From: Squalus acanthias
Lineage: Eukaryota
Direction: 5' to 3'
Assembly (NCBI GenBank): GCA_030390025.1
Contig: JASTWF010000334.1
Coordinates: 310,001-374,000 of the forward strand
Length of the DNA stretch: 64,000 nucleotides
The position numbers were made by a program, and so were the translations under genes. Under the pieces are notes generated by a model. That model saw nothing but the letters and a program-made list of their open reading frames with translations, had not been told where the DNA came from and ran no database searches. Positions 1 to 51,787 of the stretch are shown here, piece by piece; the stretch's first letter is position 1; each line of letters begins with the position of its first letter.

Positions 1-534
1 ATTGAGGGTTATCAGGGACGCAGATTGAGGATTATCAGGGACACAGATTGAGGATTATCAGGACACAGATTGAGGATTATCAGGGACACAGATTGAGGAT
101 TATTAGGGACACAGATTGAGGATTATCAGGGACTCAGATTGAAAATTATCAGGGACATAGATTGAGCATTATCAGGGACACAGATTGAGGATTATCAGGA
201 CACAGATTGAGGATTATCAGGACACAGATTGAGGATTATCAGGATTACAGTTTGAGAATTATCAGGGACACAGATTGAGGATTATCAGGGACACAGATTG
301 AGGTTTATCAGGGACACAGATTGAGGATTGTCAGGGACAAAGATTGAGGATTATCAGGGACACAGATTGAGGATTATCAGGGACACAGATTGAGGATTAT
401 CAGGGACACAGATTGAGGATTATCTGGGCCATAGATTGAGGATTACCAGGACACAGATTGAGGATTATCAGGGACACAGATTGAGGATTATCAGGGACAC
501 AGATTGAGGATTATCAGGGATACAGTTTGAGGAT
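1..534 (+). repeat. 23-bp minisatellite (GATTGAGGATTATCAGGGACACA)n
   Basis: Tandem unit read directly; interrupted at 535 by the LTR element and resumes at 5016-~5100; further blocks at ~9028-9070 (inverted) and ~10332-10757. Confidence 0.95.
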
Positions 535-728
535 TGTCGTAAGAATGAGCCTTACGCGTGGTGAACTTAAAGTAAGCTTTAATCAACTAAAAAGATGCTA
601 CATACAATCGAGGTCTTACTCTATGCCTCTCCAGGATCCAACTGATCAGCCCAGTATTTATCCTGGACTAATCACAGGAAGTGATGTAATAAAGTTCGAG
701 TCACAGGAAGCTGTATTGTGTTACCACA
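535..728 (-). repeat. 3' LTR of the Gypsy element
   Basis: Direct repeat of 4822-5015; preceded on the minus strand by the PPT. Confidence 0.95.
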
Positions 729-791
729 TTCTCCCCCCCCAAAAGATTAGGAGGCCGGGATGAAGTTCGAGTCACAGGAAGCTGTATTGTG

Positions 792-3700
792 TTACCACAT
801 TCTCCCTCCATTTCGTAGCCGCTGGACGAGGGAGAGCCGCACCCGTTTGGGTTCTCGTAGCGATAGAGGGCCCCTAGCCCGTTTACCCGTCGCGGGCCGT
901 GGACCAGAGTCCGAGTGATCCAGCCCGCTCTGTGAGGGGTCAGGACGATCCTGACTGTGTACTGGTGCCCGAACGGGTGTCAGGCAGGGCTGTGGCAGAT
1001 CCATTTCCGAGCGTATGGTATGGGGTGGATCGTGGCTGCGCGTGCGAGCCCCGACGGGCTCGTAGTCAGTCTGCCCCAGGTCGGCACGCTGGAGTGAGGT
1101 ACCAGCCGGCGTCAGATCCAGATCGTGATGAGAGGCACCTGGCGAGCCCAGAGATGTGCCTGGTACAATATCATCCCCTGGTGTCCCTCTATGTTTCGGC
1201 GGGCAGGGAGCCAGATCCCGCAATGACACGGTAGATTCCCGACCGTCAGGATACCGAATATAGGCGTAGGTAGGGTTGACGTCAGTGAGCTCAACCTCAT
1301 CTACCAGGGGGTCATTCTTAGACGCCCGGACATATCTTCGGAGTAGCACTGGTCCCGGTGCAGTCAGCCACGACGGGAGAGATATCCCATAGGATGAGCG
1401 ACGCTGAAATCGGAAGAACCGTTCATGAGGCGTCGTATTTGTGGCGGTCGAAAGGAGGGACCGTGTGGAGTGTAATGCGTCTGGAAGTACTGCTTCCCAT
1501 TGCTGGTTGGGTAGGCCCCGAGATCTCAAAGCCAGACGTACCGCATTCCAGATGATAGCGTTAAAACGCTCGACTTGCCCATTCCCGACCGGATGATAAG
1601 GCGTCGTTCTGCTGGCAGCAATACCCCGTTCCGAGAGATAGGCCTTGAGTTCTCCTGACATAAAAGAAGGGCCCCGATCCGAATGAACATAGGATGCCAT
1701 GCCACAGAAAGCAAATACCTGCTCAAGGCAGCTGATAACCGTGGTCGTCAGCATATTGGGGCAGGGAAAGGCAAACGGAAAACGGGAATACTCATCGACC
1801 ATGGTCAATAGATAAGTGTTGCGAGTTGAAGAGGGCAACGGCCCCTTAAAATCGATGCTAAGCCGTTGCATTGGCTGGGTCGCATGTATGAGTATACCAC
1901 CCGAGGGGCGGAAAAACTGAGGTTTCAATTCCGCACAGACTCTGCAGTCCGAGCACATCTTCTTTACATCCCCGGTAGAGAATGGGAGATTTCGGGACCG
2001 CACGAAGTGTAGCATGCAAGTAACGCCCGGATGACACAACCCATCATGGATGTCTACGAGCGTAGAGGGTGCCATGGCGGAGCAGAATGCTCGTGTGAGG
2101 GTATCCGGAGCCACATTCTCCTTGCCAGGTCAATAGTGGATGGTGTAACCAAAAGAGGCCAATTCCAGCCGCCAAAGCTGGATTTTATTATTTTTAATTT
2201 TGGTCCGTTTTCGATTATCGAGCATGAAGGCGACCGATTGCTGGTCCGTGATTAAGGTAAAGTGCTGGCGAGCTAGGAGATGAGTCCACTTCCGTACTGC
2301 CTCTATGATGGCTGTAGCTTCTTTCTCGACTGGAGGATAATGTAGCTCAGCCCCTTGAAAAGTCCTGGACAAAAATGCCACCGGACGACCTTCCTGATTC
2401 AGAGTGGCCGAGATCGCCACCTCCGAGGCATCACACTCAACAACAAAAGCAAGACTCTCATCGATGGAGTGAAGAGCCGCTTTCTCCAACTGTTTTTTCA
2501 GGAGGTTAAAGGCTGCAACAGCCGCTGTGTCTAGTGGGAATGTGCTGGCCTTCAGTAGAGGTTGGATTCGGTCCGAGAAGTTAGGAATCCATTTAGCATA
2601 GTATGCAAACAGGCCGAGGGCCCTGGCGCAAGGAGGCCGGATTCTTAGGTGGCGGGAGTTCTTGGAGTGGGCGAAGCCTTTCAGGGTCAGGTTTAATGAT
2701 GCCATTGCCCACACAATAGCCAAGGATGTTGATGGTTGGTTGTGACTCAATGGATTTAGCCGCATTTAATGTCAAATTACGGTGCTGGAGTGCATCCCAA
2801 AATCGTTTGAGATTGGCGTCATGTTCCCGCTGATTGCGACCTGCGACAGTAATATTGTCCAGATAAGGAAACGTATCCTTTAAGTCTTCCTGTTTGACCA
2901 GGTCATCCATTGCTCGCTGGAAGACAGCCACTCCATTAGTGACCCCAAAGGGGAGGCGACGAAATTGATACAGCCGTCCATTGGCTTCAAAGGCCGTATA
3001 CTGCTTGTCTGAGACCTTCAAGGGTACCTGATGATAGGCACTTTTCAGATCATATGTTGAGAACACCGTGTACTCAGCCAGTTTATTAACCATATCATCG
3101 ATGCGCGGCAATGGGTATGCGTCCAAGTCCGTATATTGATTGATGGTCTGTGAATAGTCAATGCACAGCCGTTTCTTGTGAGGTTGTAGAGGGTTCTTAA
3201 CAATAACGACCTGGGCGCGCCATGGCGACGAACAAGGCTCGATGATATCCTCTGCTAAAAGCCGAGAAATCTCAGCCGCAATAAAAGACTGGTCTTCCTG
3301 ACTGAAACGTCGTGACTTTGTTATAATCGGTTTGCATCGAGGAGGGATACTGGTAAACAGTGAGGGTTCATCCAGTGAAGCTGCTGACAATGCACAGAAC
3401 GGTAATCGAGGTCGTATATTAGAAATAGTGAGTTCAGGTTTGGATCCGCCGAACTCAATGGTGAGCTTCTTATGCTGCTTTTGAAAATATAGCCCTAAGA
3501 TAAGATCACTACATAAGTCCTTGAGCACCGAAAGCCGGGTGGAGGGATACCTGTGACCATTAAGTGTTATTTCAACCATACAAAAGCCAGAAATTCTGGT
3601 ATTAAGTGATGACTGAGCCATCGCAATTGCCTGGTCCGATGGGAAAACATGTAGCTTTAACTCTGCAACAATCTGTTCCCTAATGAAACTATCAGTGCTA

Positions 3701-4743
3701 CCTGAGTCAATTAAGGCATCTAAAGTATGTCCATTAATTGATGCTTTTGTAGCTGCATGGAATAGGTTCTGAGGACAAGCAGCTGTAATTGGTGTCGTTG
3801 CACAAAGAGTGGCTGAAACTCTAGGTGTGTTTCTTCGAGAGAAAACCCGAGAGGAAGCACGATAGATTTTAGTCGGAACATCTTGATAGGCCCTTACCGG
3901 GGCAGTTCGGTAGGACTTAGCTTGATAAGCCCTCGTAGAGGTTCTTGATAGGCAAACCTTTGCAAAATGACCCTTTTTGTTGCAATGACTGCAAAACGCA
4001 TTGCGAGCAGGGCAGAATTTCCGAGGGTGAAACTCATCACCACAAAAGAAGCATTTCTTAGATTGCCAAGAGGCTGCCACAGTGGGGTCATCATCCTCTT
4101 CATCAGTGAAGTCATCAGATTGATCGTCAGGGATAAAGTCCTCCCTAATAGAGTTCACCTGTGGCCTCTTAAATTGCCTGACTGTAGTTAAGGCAGCAGA
4201 CCGAGGTCTGGGCACTGTATAAAGGTCTGCATTTCTCTTTGCCAGATCTAGAGAGCAAGCCATGTCATAAGCTCTCTGAAGCTCAAGTGTCTTACTTTCC
4301 AGTAGACGCTGGCGTATAAATGGGGAGGCAAGCCCGCAGATGAAAGCATCACGGATCATTTCTTCACGGTACAGCTCAGCTGAGGCCGCCTGAAAGTTAC
4401 AGTCCATACTAAGTCTGCAAAGCTCTTGGAGGAATTTATCAATGGATTCCTCCGGCCCTTGTTGGGCTGTAGCTAGTAGATGTCTGGCATAGACCTCATT
4501 CGGTGTCTTAGTATATAGTCTTTTAAGCGTCCGAATTGCCTCCTCGTAACTGCCCCATTCCTCGACATACTGAAATACATTCGGGGTGACACAGTTGATG
4601 AGTATCCGCAATTTTGAGTCATCATCAGCCTTGGAATATTCGAGAAAATTGTCAAACGTGCGATACCAGTGTTTCCACACCTTACCGGCTGCTGGGGTGT
4701 TTGGGTCCAAGTCAAGACGCGATGGTTTAAGGATGTTTTCCAT
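792..4743 (-). pseudogene. gag-pol: gag-pol polyprotein with one frameshift (~2620) and one in-frame TGA (2130-2132)
   Basis: Two zinc knuckles (CFFCGDEFHPRKFC, CSHCNKKGHFAKVC); protease LIDSGS; RT LPFG...YLDN; RNase H ECDASE...EKEA...TDQ; integrase H..H..C..C and IDFKG/SDRG/VERFN. Confidence 0.92.
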
Positions 4744-4821
4744 GATGGGTGATTCCCTGGATCCTTAGTTCCGAGTTCGTCCAAAAAGTTTGAGTGCGAA
4801 GTTTTTCAAAGTTGATTAAAT

Positions 4822-5015
4822 TGTCGTAAGAATGAGCCTTACGCGTGGTGAACTTAAAGTAAGCTTTAATCAACTAAAAAGGTGCTACATACAAAAGAGG
4901 TCTTACTCTATGCCTCTCCAGGATCCAACTGATCAGCCCAGTATTTATCCTGGACTAATCACAGGAAGTGATGTAATAAAGTTCGAGTCACAGGAAGCTG
5001 TATTGTGTTACCACA
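4822..5015 (-). repeat. 5' LTR of the Gypsy element
   Basis: Direct repeat of 535-728, upstream of the gag ATG at 4743. Confidence 0.95.
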
Positions 5016-5458
5016 AGGATTATCAAGAACACAGATTGAGGATTATCAGGGACACAGATTGAGGATTATCAGGGACGCATTTTGAGGATTAGCAGGGGCA
5101 CTGAGGATAGGATGTGAAAGCAAAATACTGCAGATGTTGGAAATCTGAAATAAAACAGAAAATCCTGGAAATACTCAGCAGGTCAGGGAGCGTCTGTGGA
5201 GAGAGAAACAGAGTTAACGTTTCAGGCTGATGAGCAATCATCAGTACTGGAGAAAGCTGTAACACGTTTTAAGCAGTACAGAGGCAGCGAAAGTGGGGGA
5301 GTGGAGGAAGAGGGGAGTGCGCCACAGGGATCAGTGCTGGGACTTTAACTATTTACAAGCTATATTAATGACTTGGTTTAAGGGACCGAGTGCACTGTCG
5401 CCAAATTTGCAGATGATACAAAGATAGGTGGGAATGCAAGTTGTGAGGAGGACACAAA

Positions 5459-10132: not shown

Positions 10133-10331
10133 TATATCTTTAGTCATCCAGGGAACTCCAGCTTTGGATTCCCTTCCTTTCCCCCTCATAACAATATGTC
10201 CAGATTGTACCCAAACTATCTCCTCTTTGAAGGCCTGCCATTACTCATTTACCGTTTTACCTGCCAACGTTTGATTCCAATCGACCTGGGCCAGATCCCT
10301 TTTCAACTCACTGCAATTAACCCTCCTCCAA

Positions 10332-10757
10332 CTGAGGATTATCAGGGCCACAGATTGAGGATTATCAGGGACACAGATTGAGGATTATCAGGGACACAGA
10401 TTGAGGATTATCAGGGACACAGATTGAGGATTATCAGGGACACAGATTGAGGATTATCAGGGACACAGATTGAGGATTATCAGGGGCACAGATTGAGGAT
10501 TATCAGGGACACAGATTGAGGATTATCAGGGGCACAGATTGAGGATTATCAGGGAAAAATATTGAAGATTATCAGGGCAGTGATTGAAGATTGTCAGGGA
10601 CACAGATTGAGGATTATTAGGGGAAAATATTGAAGATTATCAGGGCAGTGATTGAAGATTATCAGGGCCACAGATTGAGGATTATCCGAGGAAAATATTG
10701 AAGATTATGAGGGCAGTGATTGAAGATGATCAGGGCTACAGATTGAGGATTATCAGG
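10332..10757 (+). repeat. 23-bp minisatellite, further block
   Basis: Same unit as 1-534, degenerating towards the 3' end. Confidence 0.9.
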
Positions 10758-13703: not shown

Positions 13704-16700
13704 CTGGAGAAAGAAAAATTGAAACTAACATTTACCCATCAGTGAATCAGACAGCTATTTCTCGAACTGTTTCATACTTTCTCTTTTGGGAGAGTCAGGC
13801 CGCGATTTCCCCGACCTGGGCGGGTCGGTGGCGGGTGCGGTTGGTGGCGGGTGACGGCCTCCGAAATGACTTTCCCCAATTGGACTTGTTAAGCCCCGCC
13901 CAGCGAGTTTCCCGGCCAATTAACGGACGTGGGTCTGATGACGTCATTTGATGACCATCATCAGCCGTGTTCCTTTACGGGACCATACGCAAATTTACTT
14001 TGACATTTGTGCTGTCTGTGTTCTACAGCATTGAGGTGCTGCAAACACTGACAAGCATTGCAGAGAGGTGCACGGCTACACCCAAGCTCTCCAACTCTCA
14101 CAGCACACAGGGAGGTTCTCTTCCCTTCCAATGGGTGGAAGAGACCTCCCCAGGAGATCAACGCAGCCTGGTTGCACATTGCACAGGAGGGCACAAGCAG
14201 GGATGTCATCAGGAGGACCAGGCTGCAGTGGCACAAACCTTTCAATGATCTCAGTAGATCTCTCATCACATCCCCATCACTCTGCCTTCCCTCCCTACTC
14301 CTGCACATCCTTACTCACACCAACATTCCTTGCACCTCCACCCATCCCTCTCTATCTACATTATCACTTCCCCATCACACCCTCATCCTAGTGCAATCAT
14401 ACCAACTGACAACACACAAGGGTAGGCAGTTGTGTGTTTTAGCCAATGTTCATGTGAAGTTTCTGTTAATGTGGTGTCAAACATTGAAATCTTTATTTTC
14501 AACACTTTCCGTTTGTGAACAGATTCGTGTGCACCTTTGGAAGTGGCTTAGTGAGTTGCAGTGAATGGTGAGACATAACGGTACCCCCTGCAATGCTGAT
14601 GAGTGTGAAAGGAATGGCTTGAGCATTGTAGGGATGATTTATGGTGTTGGTGTGGGGTGGTGCCAACCTGGCACATCATGTGGCAGCCAGGGTGTGCAAC
14701 ATCAAGTGAAGTAAATCTGGCCATGGTGAGGCCTTCCCTGGTGTCGGGTGCTTATGCCTTCTGTCCTGTGCAGCATCAGGTGATTGCGGAGAAGGTTGGT
14801 GTGGTTGTTCATCCTGCTGGTGTGCCTGGCGATGTTGATGTTGCAGCTGATCATGATGAGATTCTGAAGACCAAGGTGAGAGAGTATAAACCGTACCAAT
14901 GTTGATGGAATAGATGGCAGGTGAACTGGAGATGACAGAAGCGATCTGTCAGTGGTGAGAGAGGTTGTTCCAGTGAGGTGACGCTGGATAGAGAGTTTGC
15001 TCCAAACACTTGCAACCTGCATAAAGCACAATCTGTCTTCCAAATGCAGTAAGCAACAGCTTCTGAGCTTGGAAAGTGAACAGCTGTGAGATGGGAGCTT
15101 TAATAGCACATTTCAAGCTGTCAAGTAATGAGATGATTCCATGGTCATTCAACTCCAGCCCAGCTTAGCAGACGTGATCCATGAGAAGCGTGGACCTCGT
15201 GGGCGAGTTGGTAAATTAAAAAGGTGAGCTCGAAATTGTTGTTAATCCTCTGTTAGCAAGGTCAGAATGACCTGAATTGCCTTCCTCGCCGCTGCAGGTC
15301 GGGTCTGCTCAGCGCTGACAGACCCGACATTTGGTAAAGGCATGTGGCACGGGTTGACAGCGGGGTCCCGACCTGCTGTAGTAAAAACTTTCCCACCTGA
15401 CCCACCACCGATCCCGCCCGCTGACCCCCCGGAAAACTCCCCTCTCAGTGTCTGTGATCCTCTAATTTTACCCATCTCTTGATCCATGAATTCACCTTGT
15501 AAATAAAGTGAGGCACTTCCTGTTGTTTTGCCATGTGCACTCAGTCAGTGTGTGTCTCACTGAAATCTGGAAACCTCACAATATTCAGTGGGGTTTGGAC
15601 AGTTCCTGACTGAAGATTGCGAGCTCACCCTGGGCTGGGTTTCCCAGTGTGGGGTGGACAGCAAGGCCTCACCACCAGGGCTAAACAGTCACCTACCCCA
15701 CTGCACGGACTTCACACGATTGGAGCAAAGGCTGTGATTTCTGGAGTTAGAATCTCTGTGTCCGGATTATATCATTTTAAATCTGGGAATTGAACCCCCT
15801 GTGGAAAGGGGGCGGGGTGTTTGGTGTATCAGTAAAGTGAGGGCCTGGATACAGGAAGGTTAAATAATTTTCTGAGAACGCTGTGTAAACACAGAGTGGA
15901 ATCCTGTCCAATGGGAGTACGGCTCCAGCCATGTCAGGAACAGCTCATTCAATGTGGGCCAATTATAAGGTTGGTCTCACTTTAGCCTCCACACTGCAGA
16001 ATCCAAAGAGATGGTCAATTGAGTGGAGGGAGAAACTGCAGTGTTACATCCAGTGTACGTTCCTCGATCTGCAGTGTTACACCCAGTGTACGTTCCTCTA
16101 TCTACAGTGTTACACCCAGTGTATGTTCCTCTCTCTGCAGTGTTACACCCAGTGTACGCTCCTCTATCTAGTGTTACACCCACTGTATGTTCCTCTCACT
16201 GTAGTGTTACACCCAGTGTACGTTCCTCTCACTGTAGTGTTACACCCAGTGTACGTTCCTCTATCTCCAGTTTTGCACCCAGTCTATGTTCCTCTATCTA
16301 GAGTGTTACACCCAGTGTATGTTCCTCTATCGACAGTGTTACACCCAGTGTACGTTCCTCTATCGACAGTGTTACACCCAGTGTACGTTCCTCTATCGAC
16401 AGTGTTACACCCAGTGTACGTTCCTCTATCGACAGTGTTACACCCAGTGTACGTTCCTCTATCGACAGTGTTACACCCAGTGTACGTTCCTCTATCGACA
16501 GTGTTACACCCAGTGTACGTTCCTCTATCGACAGTGTTACACCCAGTGTACGTTCCTCTATCGACAGTGTTACACCCAGTGTACGTTCCTCTATCGACAG
16601 TGTTACACCCAGTGTACGTTCCTCTATCGACAGTGTTACACCCAGTGTACGTTCCTCTATCGACAGTGTTACACCCAGTGTACGTTCCTCTATCGACAAT

Positions 16701-19700
16701 GTTACACCCAGTGTACGTTCCTCTATCTGCAGTGTGTGACCCGTGTTCATTCCTCCATTAAACAGCTTTACTTGGAAGGTGGCTGCAAAAGATGCAGAAG
16801 TTGAGCCCTGCCAAAGTCTAAAACTCAACCACACTGAGTCCAGTTAGAAGCTCATTAATCTCAGTCGACCTATCCAGTCGTCTGCATTTAATTTCCAATA
16901 AAAACACTGTCACACTTTGCAGCATCAACTTACGGTAATTTAAATGCAGACAGTCCTCTATTCCTTGAGCATTATTGGGTTCACCCGTACCCCAGTTTGT
17001 AAAATCTGTTTCCGATCCATCAGTCCAAAGGAAAGCCTCCTCCTGTGGAAATATAAAATCATAATTTAAACATGTATATTTCTGTTACAATAAACAATTT
17101 GTGATATAACTTCTCAGACAACGTTACCTTGTAGATGTCACTCAAACCGAGCCAAGTATAAGGATTTGATGCGTCTTTTGCTTGAATCACCCGTTCGAAT
17201 GAACTCGTTCTGTTCCTGCGAGTGTATGGAGGCAAGACGGCCGCCTGGAGCCAGTGCTCGGCAGTGCAGCTTTAAATAAAAATAAAACAGACCATTTGTT
17301 GTTTTTCACCTTGTTACATTGATTATATTCAGTTCTGTCGCTCCATGTAATATGTTTAATGTTGAAACATTCTATTCTTTTGCTAAAGGTGAACAATAAA
17401 ACATACAACCTGCTGTTATAAGTCCATGTCGTCCCAATATGGACTGACTCCAAACTTCACTGTGGATTAAGTGAATAGTGGGACGCTGGCACTGGATACT
17501 GGGGAACAATCTCATGGGGGTTCAATGGCTTCAAACCACCAGATTGAAGTTTCAGCAGCTTCTGTGCATCAGCTGACACTGGGCTGGTATTGTGGTCGAA
17601 TGTTCTGTGGGCTATCTGGCATTGTTTCCCCTCTTCTCCCCAACCTTTATCCATACAGCTGCTGTCAATACAGATGTTGCAGTCCACATCACTGCAAAGT
17701 GACCACGCCCACACTGACAGATTTATCTGGCCATCCTGTGCCATGTGGGAAGTCCAGGATGCTTCTCGTGTCCTGGACAACCACATGAGCAGGAAGTGTC
17801 GTCAGCTGGAGGAGCTCGAGCTCCGGGTTTCAGAGCTTGAGCAGCGGCTGGCGTCACTGCAGTGCGTCCGTGAGGCTGAGAGCTATGTGGATAACACGTT
17901 TCAGGAGGTGGTCACCCTGCAGCTTAAGAGTTAGCAGGCAGAGAGTTAATGGGTGACGGACAGACAGACAAGGAGGACCAGGCAGGTAGTGCAGGAGTCC
18001 CCTGAGTGCCTCATTTGATGATCCTTCTAACATATTGTCCCTCCTCACAGCTGTAATTGTTAATTTAACCAAAATTGCGTCCAGTCCCCGCCCCACCCCC
18101 CGTCCTTTTATATTCACCTTTAGAACTCGTTGGAAAACCCTGTAATCAGGAATGTTGAGCTACCATTCCTACTCTCCTTTCAGCCATGTTTCAGTAATAG
18201 CTATGATATCATACTTCCACACGTTTATCTGGTGAATACTGGTGAGAGTGATGGTTCCTCTGGGGAGTACAGCCAGAGCACCATAGGTGGCTCAGCTGTA
18301 TGGCGGGGAGTGGGTGGAGGAGGATGATCAGAAAAGCAATAGTGATGGGGGATTCATTAGTTAGGGGAACAGACAGGCGTTTCTGCACCGCAGACGTGAT
18401 TCCAGGATGGTATGTTGCCTCCTTGGTCAAGGATGTCACTGAGTGGCTGCAGGACATTCTGAGGGGGGAGGGCGAACAGCCAGAGGTCGTAGTCCATATC
18501 GGTACCAATGACGGAGGAGGCGGACCTGTGTGGGAGCGGCAGCGGGACCTGAGAGAAGGCGGAGCGGCCATAAAAGAGCGTGGCAGAGGAGGCCCGACAC
18601 CGGAGTGCTGCAAGTTGGGAAAGAGTCCCGAGAGCGGGAGCAATCAAACAACAACAACTTCGAAACCACTAAAGTGACATCACAACCAGGGAAGGAGCTG
18701 ATTGGTAAGTAGGACCTGGTGAGTATTTCTACAGTCCAGTCATTGAAGTAAAAGTAAGGTTTCTAGTTTAGAGTAAGTAGTGTTTAAAGGGAAGTAAGGT
18801 CCCTAGTGTATTTAATATTCTTTAATTTAAAGGAAGTAAAGGAAGTAAGTTAAGGGTAGGACATGGCAGGGCAGCTCGGCAGCATGGAGTGCTCCTCCTG
18901 TGCTATGTTGGAAGTCAGGGACACTTTTGGTGTCCAGGACGAACACATGTGCAGGAAGTGTCTCCAGCTGCAGGTACTCGAAATCCGCGTTTCGGAGCTG
19001 GAGCTGCGGCTGGAGTCACTGTGGAGCATCCGCGAAGCTGAGATCTTCGTGGATAGCACGTTTAACGAGGTGGTCACACCGCAGGTGAAGAGTGCACAGG
19101 CAGACAGGGAATGGGTGACTGCCAGACAGAGTAAAAGAACTAGGAAGGTAGTGCAGGAGTCCCCTGGGTCCATCTCCCTCTCCAACAGATTTTCCGTTTT
19201 GGATACTGCTGGGGGAGATGGTTTCTCAGGGGAATGCAGCAAGAGCCAAGTCCGTGGCACTATGAGTGGCTTAGCTGCATAGGAGGGGAGGAAAAAGAGT
19301 GGGAGAGCAAAAGTGATAGGGGATTCTATCTTAAGGGGAACAGATAGACATTTCTGTGGCCACAGACGTGACTCCAGGATGGTATGTTGCCTCCCTGGTG
19401 CCAGGGTCAAGGATGTCACTGAACGGCTGTAGGGCATTCTGAAGGGGGACGGCGAACAGTCAGAGGTCGTGGTTCACATTGGTATCAACGACGAGGGATG
19501 AGGTCCTGCAACAAGAATTTAAGGAGCTCGGTAGCAGATTAAAAAGCAGGACCTCAAAGGTTGTAATCTCTGGATTACTCCCTGTGCCACGTGCTAGTGA
19601 GTATAGGAATAGGAGGATAGAGCAGATGAATGTGTGGCTAAAGAGTTAGTGCAGGAGGGAGGGCTTTAGTTTCCTGGATCACTGGGTCTGCTTCTGGGGA

Positions 19701-40700: not shown

Positions 40701-43012
40701 CCATATGGAAAGTTAATTGGATATAAGACACTATATCGCCCCCAAGCCCACGGAAAGACAATGGGTTATTAGACACTATCCCGCCCCCTGGGGTTATTAG
40801 AAACTATCACCACCCCGCCCCCGGGTTTATTAGACACTATCACCACCCCGCCCCCGGGTTTATTAGACACTATCACCCCCCCACCCCCGGGGTTATTAGA
40901 CACTATCCCCGCTCCCCCCCCGGGGTTATTAGACACTATCCCCCCCCCCCCCCCCCGAGGTTATTAGACACTATCCCCCACCCCCGGGGTTATTAGACAC
41001 TATCCCCCCCCCCCCCCCCGGGGTTATTAGACACTATCCCCTCCCCCCCCCCCCGGGGTTATTAGACACTATCCCCCCCCCCCCCCGGGGTTATTAGACA
41101 CTATCCCCCCCCCCCGGGGTTATTAGACACTATCCCCCCCCCCCCCCCCCGGGGTTATTAGACACTATCCCCCCCCCGGGGTTATTAGACACTATCCCCC
41201 CCCCCCGGGGTTATTAGACACTATCCCCCCCCCCCCCCCCGGGGTTATTAGACACTATCCCCCCCCCCGGGGTTATTAGACACTATCCCCCCCCCCCCCG
41301 TGGTTATTAGACACTATCCCCCCCCCCGGGGTTATTAGACACTATCCCCCCCCCCCCCCGGGGTTATTAGACACTATCCCCCCCCCCGGGGTTATTAGAC
41401 ACTATCCCCCCCCCCCGGGGTTATTAGACACTATCCCCCCCCCCCCCGTGGTTATTAGACACTATCCCCCCCCCCCCCGGGGTTATTAGACACTATCCCC
41501 CCCCCCCCCCCGGGGTTATTAGACACTATCCCCCCCCCCCGGGGTTATTAGACACTATCCCCCCCCCCCCGGGGTTATTAGACACTATCCCCCCCCCCCC
41601 CGGGGTTATTAGACACTATCCCCCCCCCCCCCCCCGGGGTTATTAGACACTATCCCCCCCCCCCGGGGTTATTAGACACTATCCCCCCCCCCCCCCCGGG
41701 GTTATTAGACACTATCCCCCCCCCCCCCCCCCCGGGGTTATTAGACACTATCCCCCCCCCCCGGGGTTATTAGACACTATCCCCCCTCCCCAATGGTTTA
41801 CTCAGCTGAGCCGTGAATGAAATCCTCTCGAGTGAGCTCAACGCCAAGTGAGGAATTCACTGGATCATTTTCTGTTGGCCGGTGTGATGTTAACGAGCGG
41901 CACAAATTAATAATAAACTATGTCCCCAAATTGGCGCAGCCTCCCGACACATTCCAGCTTTAACTGAACAGGATCTGGACACAGGATCCGGGTCCACCAG
42001 GGGTGGGGATTCCAGGCCAGAGGAGCAGGCTGGACCCCCGAAGATCGAACAGTGGGGGTGAAGGATACACAAGAATGTTTGTTTATGAGAAGGAAGTGGG
42101 CGAACCCATGAGCAGGTGAGTGAGATTAGACTGGGTGCTTTAATAAAGGGTATGGGGAGTGAGCAGGAGAGTGGGATTAGACTGGTCGGGATAATAAAGT
42201 GTATGGGGAGTGAGCAGGTGAGTGAGATTAGACTGGTTGCTTTAATAAAGGGTATGGGGAGTGAGCAGGAGTGGGAGTAGACTGGTTGGGATAATGAAGG
42301 GTATGGGGAGTGAGCAGGAGAGTGGGATTAGACTGGTTGAGATAATAAAGTGTATGGGGAGTGAGCAGGAGAGTGAGATTAGACTGGTTGTGATAATAAA
42401 GGATATCGGGAGTGAGCAGGAGAGTGAGATTAGACTGGCTGGGACATTAAAGAGTATGGGGATTGAGCAGTAGTGTGGAATTGGACTGGGTGGATATTAA
42501 AGGGTATGGGGAGTTGAGCAGGAGACTGGGCTTAGACTGGCTGGAATATTAAAGGGTATGGGAAGTGAATAGGTGAGTGGGATTAGATTGTGTGGGATAT
42601 TAAAGGGTACGGGGAGTGAGCCGGAGAGTGGGATTGGAATAGGTGAGAGACTGAAAGTTATGGGATGTTCGCAGGAGAGTTTGATTAGAATGGGTGGGAT
42701 ATTTGAGGGTATGAAGAGTGACCAGGAGAGTGAGATTAGCTTGGGTGGGCTATTAAGGAGTATGGGGAGTGGGCAGAGAATGGAATTGGACTGGGTAGAA
42801 TATCAAAGCTTTGCAAAGTTAGATAGTTGCCCATTTTAGGATATTCCTTCAGGTGCCACCCCTTTCTATTCCCTCTAATTTAGACAGCAGGTAATCCACG
42901 AACTTTCCACCTCACAGCATTAACCTGTCCTCACACACCATGTCTGGTTGACCCTACCTGCCACATCACTGACGAGCAATGCACTCAGCACCAAAACCGT
43001 CACCAGCATCAT
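13624..43012 (-). CDS. Secreted prepro C-type lectin gene A (REG/ladderlectin-like single CTLD); coding exons 43012-42958, 37089-36914, 17269-17128, 17042-16934, 13703-13624; 186 aa if the +1 frameshift is corrected
   Basis: All introns GT-AG with compatible phases. Product: MMLVTVLVLSALLVSDVAG-FDTPSSTLENGQLETQTDQDQDLEKR-DVLRSGYCFNSRFYFGYCYQFVPQKKNWIEAELHCRALAPGGRLASIHSQEQNEFIRT/VIQAKDASNPYTWLGLSDIYKEEAFLWTDGSETDFTNWGTGEPNNAQGIEDCLHLNYPTRGLWNDVPCDQQHPFVCSYKLACS. Confidence 0.9.
13798..15444. mobile_element. Degenerate Harbinger derivative in the last intron of lectin A
   Basis: TSD TCA; Myb/SANT-like relic on + (INAAWLHIAQE...RRTRLQWHKPFNDL). Confidence 0.7.
16038..16735 (+). repeat. 33-bp minisatellite (CAGTGTTACACCCAGTGTACGTTCCTCTATCGA)n, about 21 copies
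   Basis: Tandem unit read directly; explains the repetitive 11-aa ORFs. Confidence 0.95.
16934..17042 (-). CDS. Lectin A coding exon 4
   Basis: CAG|EEAFLWTDGSETDFTNWGTGEPNNAQGIEDCLHLNY|GTAAGT; EPN sugar-binding motif. Confidence 0.92.
17128..17269 (-). pseudogene. Lectin A coding exon 3 with a +1 frameshift
   Basis: 142 bp between phase-0 sites (141 expected); LHC...LASIHS in one frame and WLGLSD in the next; CCC run at 17190-17192. Confidence 0.85.
21228..22154 (+). CDS. CR1 ORF1p: zinc finger, coiled coil, SGNH esterase
   Basis: CSSC...CGKC; LRVRELELEL-type heptad region; IVIGDS; HIGTND; DGLH. Confidence 0.92.
   Translation: MAGEAVKCSSCRMFEVRDAVGVPADYTCGKCTHLQLLENRVRELELELDELRIIREAEEVIDRSFRDVITPKHEDRWVTVRGARRKQSVQGSSVVVPLSNRYTALNTVEGDDLPVVSHGDRISGAGSVPVAQKGRGESRRAIVIGDSIVRGTDRRFCGSKRDSRMVCCLPGARVHDVSDRVFRILKGEGEQSQVVVHIGTNDIGRRRDGDLKQEFRELGWKLRASTNHVVISGLLPVPRASELRNRERVQINTWLQGWCRGEGFSYVDNWSTFWGRWDLYKQDGLHLNQRGTNILGGKFATALRGGLN
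22155..25051 (+). pseudogene. CR1 ORF2p (APE endonuclease + RT), open except one TGA at 22340-22342
   Basis: YFNARNI...ITETW, GDFN, SDHN; PQGSVLGP, FADD; 899 aa open downstream of the stop. Confidence 0.9.
29010..29518 (+). mobile_element. L2-type LINE 3' fragment
   Basis: Ends AAAGGCGCTATATAAAT...GTTGTTG; related pieces at ~33600-33735 and ~35430-35640. Confidence 0.65.
31440..32129 (+). mobile_element. 3' fragment of the second LINE family, inserted within an antisense copy of the same family
   Basis: ORF EYSPFAW...IQDKAARLI...HSLHHRR; A-rich tail; minus-strand tail pieces at ~31388-31436 and ~32130-32198. Confidence 0.75.
32202..32869. mobile_element. Harbinger-derived MITE
   Basis: TIRs GGGGGAAAAATT / AATTTTTCCCCC; TSD TAT. 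Confidence 0.88.
36914..37089 (-). CDS. Lectin A coding exon 2 (propeptide and start of the CTLD)
   Basis: CTGCAG|...DQDQDLEKR...C...GYCYQF...KNWIEAE|GTAAGT. Confidence 0.92.
37290..38510 (-). mobile_element. CR1, Penelope and Harbinger-end fragments in lectin A intron 1
   Basis: CR1 3' region on the minus strand; 37580-37810 resembles the Penelope ORF; ~37860-38210 resembles 57930-58200 inverted. Confidence 0.65.
38562..40472 (+). mobile_element. 5'-truncated Penelope-like element (RT + GIY-YIG), one frameshift near 39500
   Basis: GVAMG, YIDD; NLIYCIRCSRCGLLYIGET; 8-bp TSD AAAAGTAC (38554-38561, 40473-40480) within an L2-tailed fragment. Confidence 0.93.
40370..40405 (+). ncRNA. Minimal hammerhead ribozyme motif (slightly degenerate)
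   Basis: CTGACGA-c-GGGT-tgtg-ACCT-GAAACGTT-AACT. Confidence 0.6.
40765..41790 (-). repeat. G-run minisatellite (GATAGTGTCTAATAACCCC-Gn), left-arm copy
   Basis: Roughly 30-35 units with variable C-runs on +. Confidence 0.95.
42108..42797 (+). repeat. 51-bp diverged minisatellite, about 13 copies
   Basis: Unit GGGAGTGAGCAGGAGAGTGGGATTAGACTGGTCGGGATAATAAAGTGTATG. Confidence 0.9.
42958..43012 (-). CDS. Lectin A coding exon 1 (signal peptide)
   Basis: Exon starts at 43040 after TTTCAG; MMLVTVLVLSALLVSDVA|GTAGGG. Confidence 0.9.
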
Positions 43013-49854: not shown

Positions 49855-51787
49855 GGGTGGGGGCGCGATAGTGTCTAATAACCCCGGGGGGGGGGGGGGG
49901 TGGTGGGATAGTGTCTAATAACCCCGGGGGGGGGGGGGATAGTGTCTAATAAACCGGGGAGGTGGGGGGGGATAGTGTCTAATAACCCCGGGGAGGGGAT
50001 ACAGTGTCTAATAACCCGGGGGGGGGGGGGGGGATAGTGTCTAATAACCCCGGGGAGGGGGGGGGGATAGTGTCTAATAACCCCGGGGGGGGGGGGGGAT
50101 AGTGTCTAATAACCCCGGGGGGGGGGGGATAGTGTCTAATAACCCCGGGGGGGGGGGGGGGGGGGATAGTGTCTAATAACCCCGGGGGGGGGGGATAGTG
50201 TCTAATAACCCCGGGGAGGGGGAACAGTGTCTAATAACCCGGGGGGGGGGGGGGGGGATAGCGTCTAATAAACCGGGGAGGTGGGGGGGGATAGTGTCTA
50301 ATAACCCGGTGGGGGGGGGGGGGGATAGTGTCTAATAACCCGGTGGGGGGGGGGGGGATAGTGTCTAATAACCCCGGGGGGGGGGGGTGGGATAGTGTCT
50401 AATAACCCGGTGGGGGGGGGGGGATAGTTTCTAATAACCCGGGGAGGTGGGGGGGTTAGTGTCTAATAACCCCGGGGGGGGGGGGGGGATAGTGTCTAAT
50501 AACCCCGGGGGGGGAGGCGGGATAGTGTCTAATAACCCCGGGGGGGGGGGGGATAGTGTCTAATAACCCCGGGGGGGGAGGGGGGGGGATAGTGTCTAAT
50601 AACCCCGGGGGGGAGGGGGGGGGATAGTGTCTAATAACCCCGGGGGGGGGGGGGAGGATAGTGTCTAATAACCCCGGGGGGGTGATAGTGTCTTATAACC
50701 CGGGGGGGGGGGGGATAGTGTCTAATAACCCCGGGGGGGGTGGGGGATAGTGTCTAATAACCCGGGGGGGGTGGGGGATAGTGTCTAATAACCCTGGGGG
50801 AGGGGGGGGGGGATAGTGTCTAATAACCCCGGGGGAGGGGGGGGTAGTGTCTAATACCCCGGGGGATAGTGTCTAATAACCCCGGGGGGGGGGATAGTGT
50901 CTTATAACCCGGGGGGGGGGGGGGGGGAGTGATAGTGTCTAATAACCCCGGGAGGAGGGGGGGGGGGGAGAGTGTCTAATAACCCCGGGGGGTGGGGGGG
51001 GGATAGTGTCTAATAACCCGGGGGATAGTGTCTAATAACCCCGGGGGGGGGGGGGGGATAGTTTCTAATAACCCCGGGGGAGGGGGGGGGGAGAGTGTCT
51101 AATAACCCCGGGGGGTGGGGGGGGATAGTGTCTAATAACCCCGGGGGAGGGGGGGGGGGTAGTGTCTAATAACCCGGGGGGGGTGGGGGGGATAGTGTCT
51201 AATAACCCCGGGGGATGGGGGGGGGATAGTGTCTAATAACCCCGGGGGGTGGGGGGGGGATAGTGTCTAATAACCCCGGGGGGGGGGAGGTAGTGTCTAA
51301 TAACCCCGGGGGAGGGGGGGGGGAGAGAGTGTCTAATAACCCCGGGATAGGGATAGTGTCTAATAACCCCGGGGGGTGGGGGGGGGGGATAGTGTCTAAT
51401 AACCCCGGGGGGTGGGGGGGGATAGTGTCTAATAACCCCGGGGGGGGAGGTAGTGTCTAATAACCCCGGGGAGGGGGGGGGGGGAGAGAGTGTCTAATAA
51501 CCCCGGGGGGTGGGGGGGGATAGTGTCTAATAACCCCGGGGGGTGGGGGGGGGATAGTGTCTAATAACCCCGGGGGGGGTGGGGGATAGTGTCTATTAAC
51601 CCTGGGGGAGGGGGGGGGTAGTGTCTAATAACCCCGGGGGAGGGGGGATAGTGTCTAATAACCCCGGGGGGTGGGGGAGGGGGGGGGATAGTGTCTAATA
51701 ACCCCGGGGGAGGGGGGGGGATAGTGTCTAATAACCCCGGGGGAGGGGGGGGGTAGTGTCTAATAACTCCGGGGAGGGGATAGTGTT
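49855..51787 (+). repeat. G-run minisatellite, right-arm copy (about 60 units)
   Basis: Reverse complement of the unit at 40765-41790. Confidence 0.95.

Follow-up and report, generated by a model that had tools for sequence, protein, structure and literature searches.

A primer-binding site complementary to its own LTR in a chromodomain-free clade of animal Gypsy retrotransposons, a signature of likely self-priming

The fission-yeast retrotransposon Tf1 is described as using the first 11 bases of its transcript as primer, with an RNase H cut between bases 11 and 12 (PMC7175516). Two duplexes are reported to flank its primer-binding site (PBS) in a fold called the pretzel, and the fission-yeast Tf1/sushi-group elements are all described as carrying a chromodomain (PMC10085805). 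Self-priming has been described for Tf1/sushi, Tcn1 and TAR Copia elements (PMC6317226, PMC6934838, PMC5445492), and among Gypsy elements it has been treated as a mark of Tf1/sushi chromoviruses (PMC6317226, PMC10085805). For Tcn1 chromoviruses and TAR Copia elements (Houba, Osr-1), self-priming is predicted by the same criterion as for the elements studied here, namely an LTR complement of at least 10 bp starting 0–5 bp after the 5' LTR (PMC6317226). Those are plant or fungal lineages, and TAR is Copia, whereas the named members of the clade described below come from crustaceans, a nematode, a tunicate and cnidarians.

We analysed a 64,000-nt window of Squalus acanthias DNA containing an element that, judged from its sequence, is a young, high-copy Gypsy retrotransposon whose predicted PBS pairs with its own LTR instead of a tRNA. 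By analogy with Tf1, reverse transcription of this element is likely to be primed by 11 bases of its own RNA. Its clade resembles Tf1, Tf2, Tj1 and the Tf1/sushi group in having no tRNA PBS and, beside the 5' LTR, a site complementary to a stretch of the LTR; it also shares the single gag-pol ORF of the Tf1/sushi group, and the Tf1 primer is likewise 11 nt long (PMC7175516). Unlike the Tf1/sushi chromoviruses, the clade has no chromodomain, and its RT-RH region is 28–35% identical to that of chromodomain-bearing proteins and falls outside their cluster. It further differs from Tf1 in that a flanking pretzel duplex is unsupported, the primer is only putatively the RNA 5' end and the RT motif is mostly YxDN.

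What is likely new here is the self-priming signature in a chromodomain-free animal Gypsy clade, self-priming itself being already known from Tf1/sushi, Tcn1 and TAR. A literature search that lacked some key older papers and Repbase returned no report of it in such a clade. In one survey, 361 of 1,512 elements were left with no tRNA PBS assigned, and self-priming is not mentioned in the accessible part of its text (PMC13524379).

The element and its priming site

The element is complete and runs on the minus strand from 5015 to 535 (4,481 nt; Table 1). It shows the PR-RT-RH-IN order, direct LTRs with TG...CA ends, PPT and target-site duplication (TSD) of Ty3/Gypsy elements, its best solved relative is Ty3 Gag-Pol (E 1.9e-58), and the RNase H catalytic motifs are present. 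Its two LTRs differ at 3 of 194 bases, and its coding region has interruptions near 2.6 kb and 2.13 kb. Matches in a cluster atlas were to unnamed retro-Gag clusters, and an Rfam search gave no match near the gathering score. The extra PPT-like tract, together with its 37-nt copy of the LTR start, is placed 72 nt ahead of the 3' LTR and contains the ORF stop; contigs from four public runs carry a form without 39 nt at this place. Elsewhere in the window there are further minisatellites, the full set having units of 23, 33–34 and 51 nt (15–540, 5004–5119, 10300–10700; 16007–16874; 40781–42827; 49856–51751).

Table 1. Features of the element and its insertion site in the window
Feature	Position	Strand	Remarks
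5' TSD ATCCT	5016..5020	-	insertion site is a 23-nt minisatellite
5' LTR, 194 nt, TGT...ACA	4822..5015	-	
TATA-like motif (predicted)	4942..4949	-	distance to the paired 11-mer downstream 74 nt, and 92 nt for the homologous motif of the sister family
Predicted self-primer, 11 nt	4865..4875	-	starts in initiator-like TTAGTT, ends in ATTAAA hexamer
Small hairpin	4849..4864	-	begins at the base directly past the predicted primer end; common among relatives, not significant
U5 hairpin CGTAAG/CTTACG	4825..4843	-	arms 4843-4838 and 4830-4825
One-base spacer A	4821	-	between LTR end (CA) and PBS
Predicted primer-binding site (PBS)	4810..4820	-	complement of 4875-4865; no TGG
gag-PR-RT-RH-IN coding region	792..4743	-	no chromodomain; RT motif YLDN
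Extra PPT-like tract and 37-nt copy of LTR start	763..809	-	common to 8/8 other copies examined
Polypurine tract (PPT)	729..740	-	
3' LTR, 194 nt	535..728	-	second copy of the 11-mer at 588-578
3' TSD ATCCT	530..534	-	

The first-pass annotation of this DNA had placed an exact 11-nt self-complementary site without TGG directly after the 5' LTR, together with its LTR complement, a CGTAAG/CTTACG hairpin and a TATA-like motif, and all of these coordinates hold on the minus strand. The pairing is exact, and the PBS 11-mer has no complement in the element other than the two LTR copies. When the LTR was shuffled with dinucleotide composition preserved (last 191 of its 194 nt), a complement of at least 11 nt arose in 1 of 5,000 shuffles. 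The folding energy of the 66-nt segment is −15.3 kcal/mol (z −3.64; 1/200 shuffles equally good), and significance is gone when longer segments are folded (z −0.5 and −0.2). The 79-nt leader contains a single TGG, at +39, and none beside the LTR.

Covariation across relatives

Homologues with 47–81% identity include named proteins from shrimp, copepod, isopod, nematode, tunicate and cnidarians, and 93 metagenome or MAG loci yielded 35 gag 5' ends. A search that assumed no LTR end found an LTR complement (9–18 nt) upstream of 26 of these 35, and in 19 of the 26 the complement begins exactly at CA+1, one base past the LTR end; that end was checked against the 3' LTR wherever both LTRs were present. 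After removal of six near-duplicates, two ends with <100 nt upstream and one second match, and addition of two genome families, 28 ends remained. At CA+1, 23 of the 28 form at least 10 of 11 pairs with their own LTR, using 16 distinct 11-mers, and five fail; the best value in 320 shuffles was 9/11. Mean pairing was 10.8 with the own LTR versus 7.9 across families. One of the passing ends (L099), unlike the rest, may be a chance match.

We aligned 19 of the 23 passing ends, leaving out L053, L099, L107 and L124. RNAalifold returned a single 13-bp helix in which 10 of 13 pairs have two-sided changes; across its 247 cells, 97.6% are paired, with 42 two-sided changes and one G-U. None of 500 shuffles scored as high, and slid registers paired at 19–50%. 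These figures are not probabilities, since the rows were picked for pairing (by a Watson-Crick score, which favours few G-U pairs), several come from one assembly and the shuffles ignore kinship. A single two-sided change separates the near-identical loci L039 and L048. The CGTAAG/CTTACG hairpin did not appear as a conserved consensus helix in the 19-row alignment. Three distant loci with integrase before RT, which serve as an outgroup, have an ordinary TGG site. The first-pass annotation had offered covariation of both 11-mers among family members as a check on its tRNA-independent reading; relatives pass this check strongly, and their two-sided changes support the reading itself.

These data make it extremely improbable that the match arose by chance or reflects a DNA-level duplication devoid of function. 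Such a match is helped by the AT-rich sequence and by the first five PBS bases, which are common to most relatives, but the shuffle frequency of 1 in 5,000, the covariation and a PBS position that stays fixed across clade proteins only 51–80% identical in RT-RH all argue against it. We also consider unlikely a purely structural helix that would mask the 5' poly(A) signal, with a tRNA half or other host small RNA acting as the primer. A fixed host RNA cannot match the PBS, because 16 different 11-mers each follow their own LTR; the best match to the PBS was 7/11, although this comparison spans just 16 tRNA genes of only four isotypes. The structural part of the proposal gains from 11 of 20 families in which the paired stretch closes with a canonical AATAAA or ATTAAA, and loses from the other 9, whose helix has no such hexamer, and from a helix that begins one base past the LTR end, the geometry required for priming. 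Thus the earlier suggestion that the primer overlaps a poly(A) signal stands for this copy, with its ATTAAA, and for canonical hexamers in just those 11 families, so hiding of the signal may be a by-product rather than a cause.

The 3' end of the primer defines the cDNA end, so priming must occur at the LTR end. The sole partner found for the site there is the element's own LTR, tracking every change, and tRNA-independent self-priming is supported as the best explanation of these patterns.

Among the sequences collected, L119–L131 are eukaryote-type retrotransposons of the clade on contigs filed as bacterial genomes, probably host contamination. Viral contigs yielded no relative, and an RVT_1 search gave no useful elements.

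Genomic copies and a model of priming

The 3.7-Gb genome holds at least 150 near-identical gag matches, and 7 of 8 full-length copies were scorable, each of these with a 5-bp TSD and 0–1 LTR differences. Among 90 copies picked by gag, 86 keep all 11 pairs, three keep 10 and one has an LTR deletion. A sister family in the same genome (80% RT-RH identity to the window family; 215-nt LTR) keeps 13 of 13 pairs in 117 of 120 copies. A pattern search of the genome for more families gave 23 matches, none with gag or with a helix >7 bp. One sister-family copy (L144) has four extra bases between LTR end and PBS, and two pairs of sister-family gag matches lie 4.29 kb apart (C4:938041/942336; C5:93134998/93139284), as tandem elements with an LTR in common would. 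Runs X1, X2, X4 and X9 contain a variant LTR (window 4820–4978) with an extra base at 4874, which would pair over 12 bases; this variant is absent from the 90 genome copies. One contig end from X4 looks A-to-G hyper-edited.

By analogy with Tf1, the RNA would fold so that 4875–4865 pairs with 4820–4810, the element's RNase H would cut 3' of ATTAAA, between 4865 and 4864, and RT would extend the resulting 3'-OH across spacer and U5 (44 nt). After strand transfer, the plus strand would copy the primer, so that the PBS is rewritten from LTR sequence and the two are kept in step; such copying would account for changes being two-sided in nearly every case. Tf1 RT is described as adding non-templated bases to cDNA 3' ends (PMC11042837), and plus-strand copying of the primer combined with untemplated addition by RT should leave a cluster of errors just past the helix. 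In the sister family, only two of 375 columns are triallelic, and they are the positions directly past the 13-bp helix: +14 (A 100, G 16, C 4) and +15 (T 113, A 4, C 3). The +14 G is recurrent, occurring on three haplotype backgrounds (6/44, 5/40 and 3/30). This hot spot is as expected for the end of a copied primer and appears consistent with it. In the window family, the predicted primer edge shows no hot spot: all 90 copies agree at +12, and a +15 G (17/90) is confined to one haplotype.

Because the 11-mer is present in both LTRs, sequence cannot distinguish which copy acts, and the 3' copy (588–578) would be transcribed at the 3' end of the RNA should its ATTAAA serve as poly(A) signal. 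Three points nonetheless make priming by that copy at the end of the genomic RNA, or by the 11-mer of a second packaged RNA, very unlikely: the 5' copy lies 44 nt from the PBS and folds in cis, the sister-family hot spot suggests a short copied primer, and the portions of the literature consulted contain no precedent.

With priming from the 5' copy as the preferred reading, the position of the transcript start can be considered. The initiator-like sequence around 4875 may be set beside the consensus TCAKTY (PMC3601003). The TATA-like boxes at −74 and −92 in the window and sister families point to predicted starts ~45–60 nt upstream of 4875, and no TATA position is common to the 20 families compared. 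A start exactly at 4875 is therefore a candidate only, as these boxes lie 74–92 nt upstream and paired lengths vary among relatives between 10 and 18 nt; alternative starts are known in Tf2 (PMC5341516). The hairpin after the primer end averages 4.2 bp versus 3.8 bp in shuffles, 87 of 1,000 of which were equally good. A leader-to-LTR duplex like that of the Tf1 pretzel is unsupported (195/200 shuffles equally good), and the consensus has the central helix only.

A primer made by splicing was considered for this copy and rejected, the 33-nt GT...AG interval (4906–4874) being short for an intron and its junction pairing 9 bases, fewer than the unspliced 11. No splice joint in the LTR was found in LTR-covering contigs of runs presumed to be RNA.

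Relation to chromoviruses and other Gypsy clades

The first-pass annotation saw no chromodomain, and Pfam agrees, giving no chromodomain or SH3 match. PF00385 and PF24626 had no match at E ≤ 1 in two uninterrupted natural ORFs, and none is listed for 120 homologues. In an RT-RH tree, 52 clade rows form one group with a stem of 0.99 changes/site, against 0.9–1.0 over the RT-RH trees as a whole, outside a cluster of 28 chromodomain proteins; that cluster has 99% SH-aLRT support with the clade excluded, and an RT-RH-IN tree agrees. The RT trees were built without named Tf1 and sushi sequences and used four retrovirus-like SH3_Tf2 matches from the genome as outgroup. An RT phylogeny, which had also been suggested as a check, thus places the clade outside the sampled chromoviruses, but sisterhood of the two is not rejected (p-AU 0.494), so one or two origins of self-priming both stand. 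As for chromovirus references from the same genome, the 16 Chromo matches all lacked integrase, and the SH3_Tf2 matches were set aside in that role as retrovirus-like.

The RT motif, located in the window within 2593–4743 (-), is YxDN in 89 of 120 clade proteins, with DD in 28 and three unaligned. None of 120 outside proteins has YxDN. In Ty1, the same change is reported to abolish transposition in vivo (PMC2148107), which makes a natural YxDN active site notable in a family that is young and spreading.

A joint scenario can be put forward only tentatively, with more doubt than confidence: a widespread animal Gypsy clade would have evolved self-priming independently of Tf1/sushi, with a TATA-driven start ~45–60 nt upstream and a primer excised from within the leader, with no pretzel, at a TTAAA end resembling a poly(A) hexamer, and extended by an RT that is usually YxDN rather than YxDD. 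The presence of the self-priming signature in a large animal clade lacking chromodomains would imply that the mechanism either predates chromoviruses or evolved a second time. Annotation based on tRNA PBSs would miss the elements of this clade, and control by tRNA fragments would not reach them. With hundreds of young copies, both the start site and the primer are open to direct testing.

Among named animal Gypsy clades (MolGy, Saci2, Cigr-1, Tor and Mag), a motif search of one paper supplement came back empty. The clade may be one of the MolGy clades, as far as these are described in PMC6238403, or lie near Saci2. Flatworm Saci2-like elements share its single Gag-Pol ORF and TGT...ACA ends and are described as having a highly variable PBS, with tRNA primers assigned by the authors; compared by description only, they differ in 4-bp TSDs and 250–525-nt LTRs, versus 5 bp and ~190–220 nt in the clade (PMC12471100). 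The same genome also contains retrovirus-like elements (L302–L320) with ~25% RT-RH identity to the window element.
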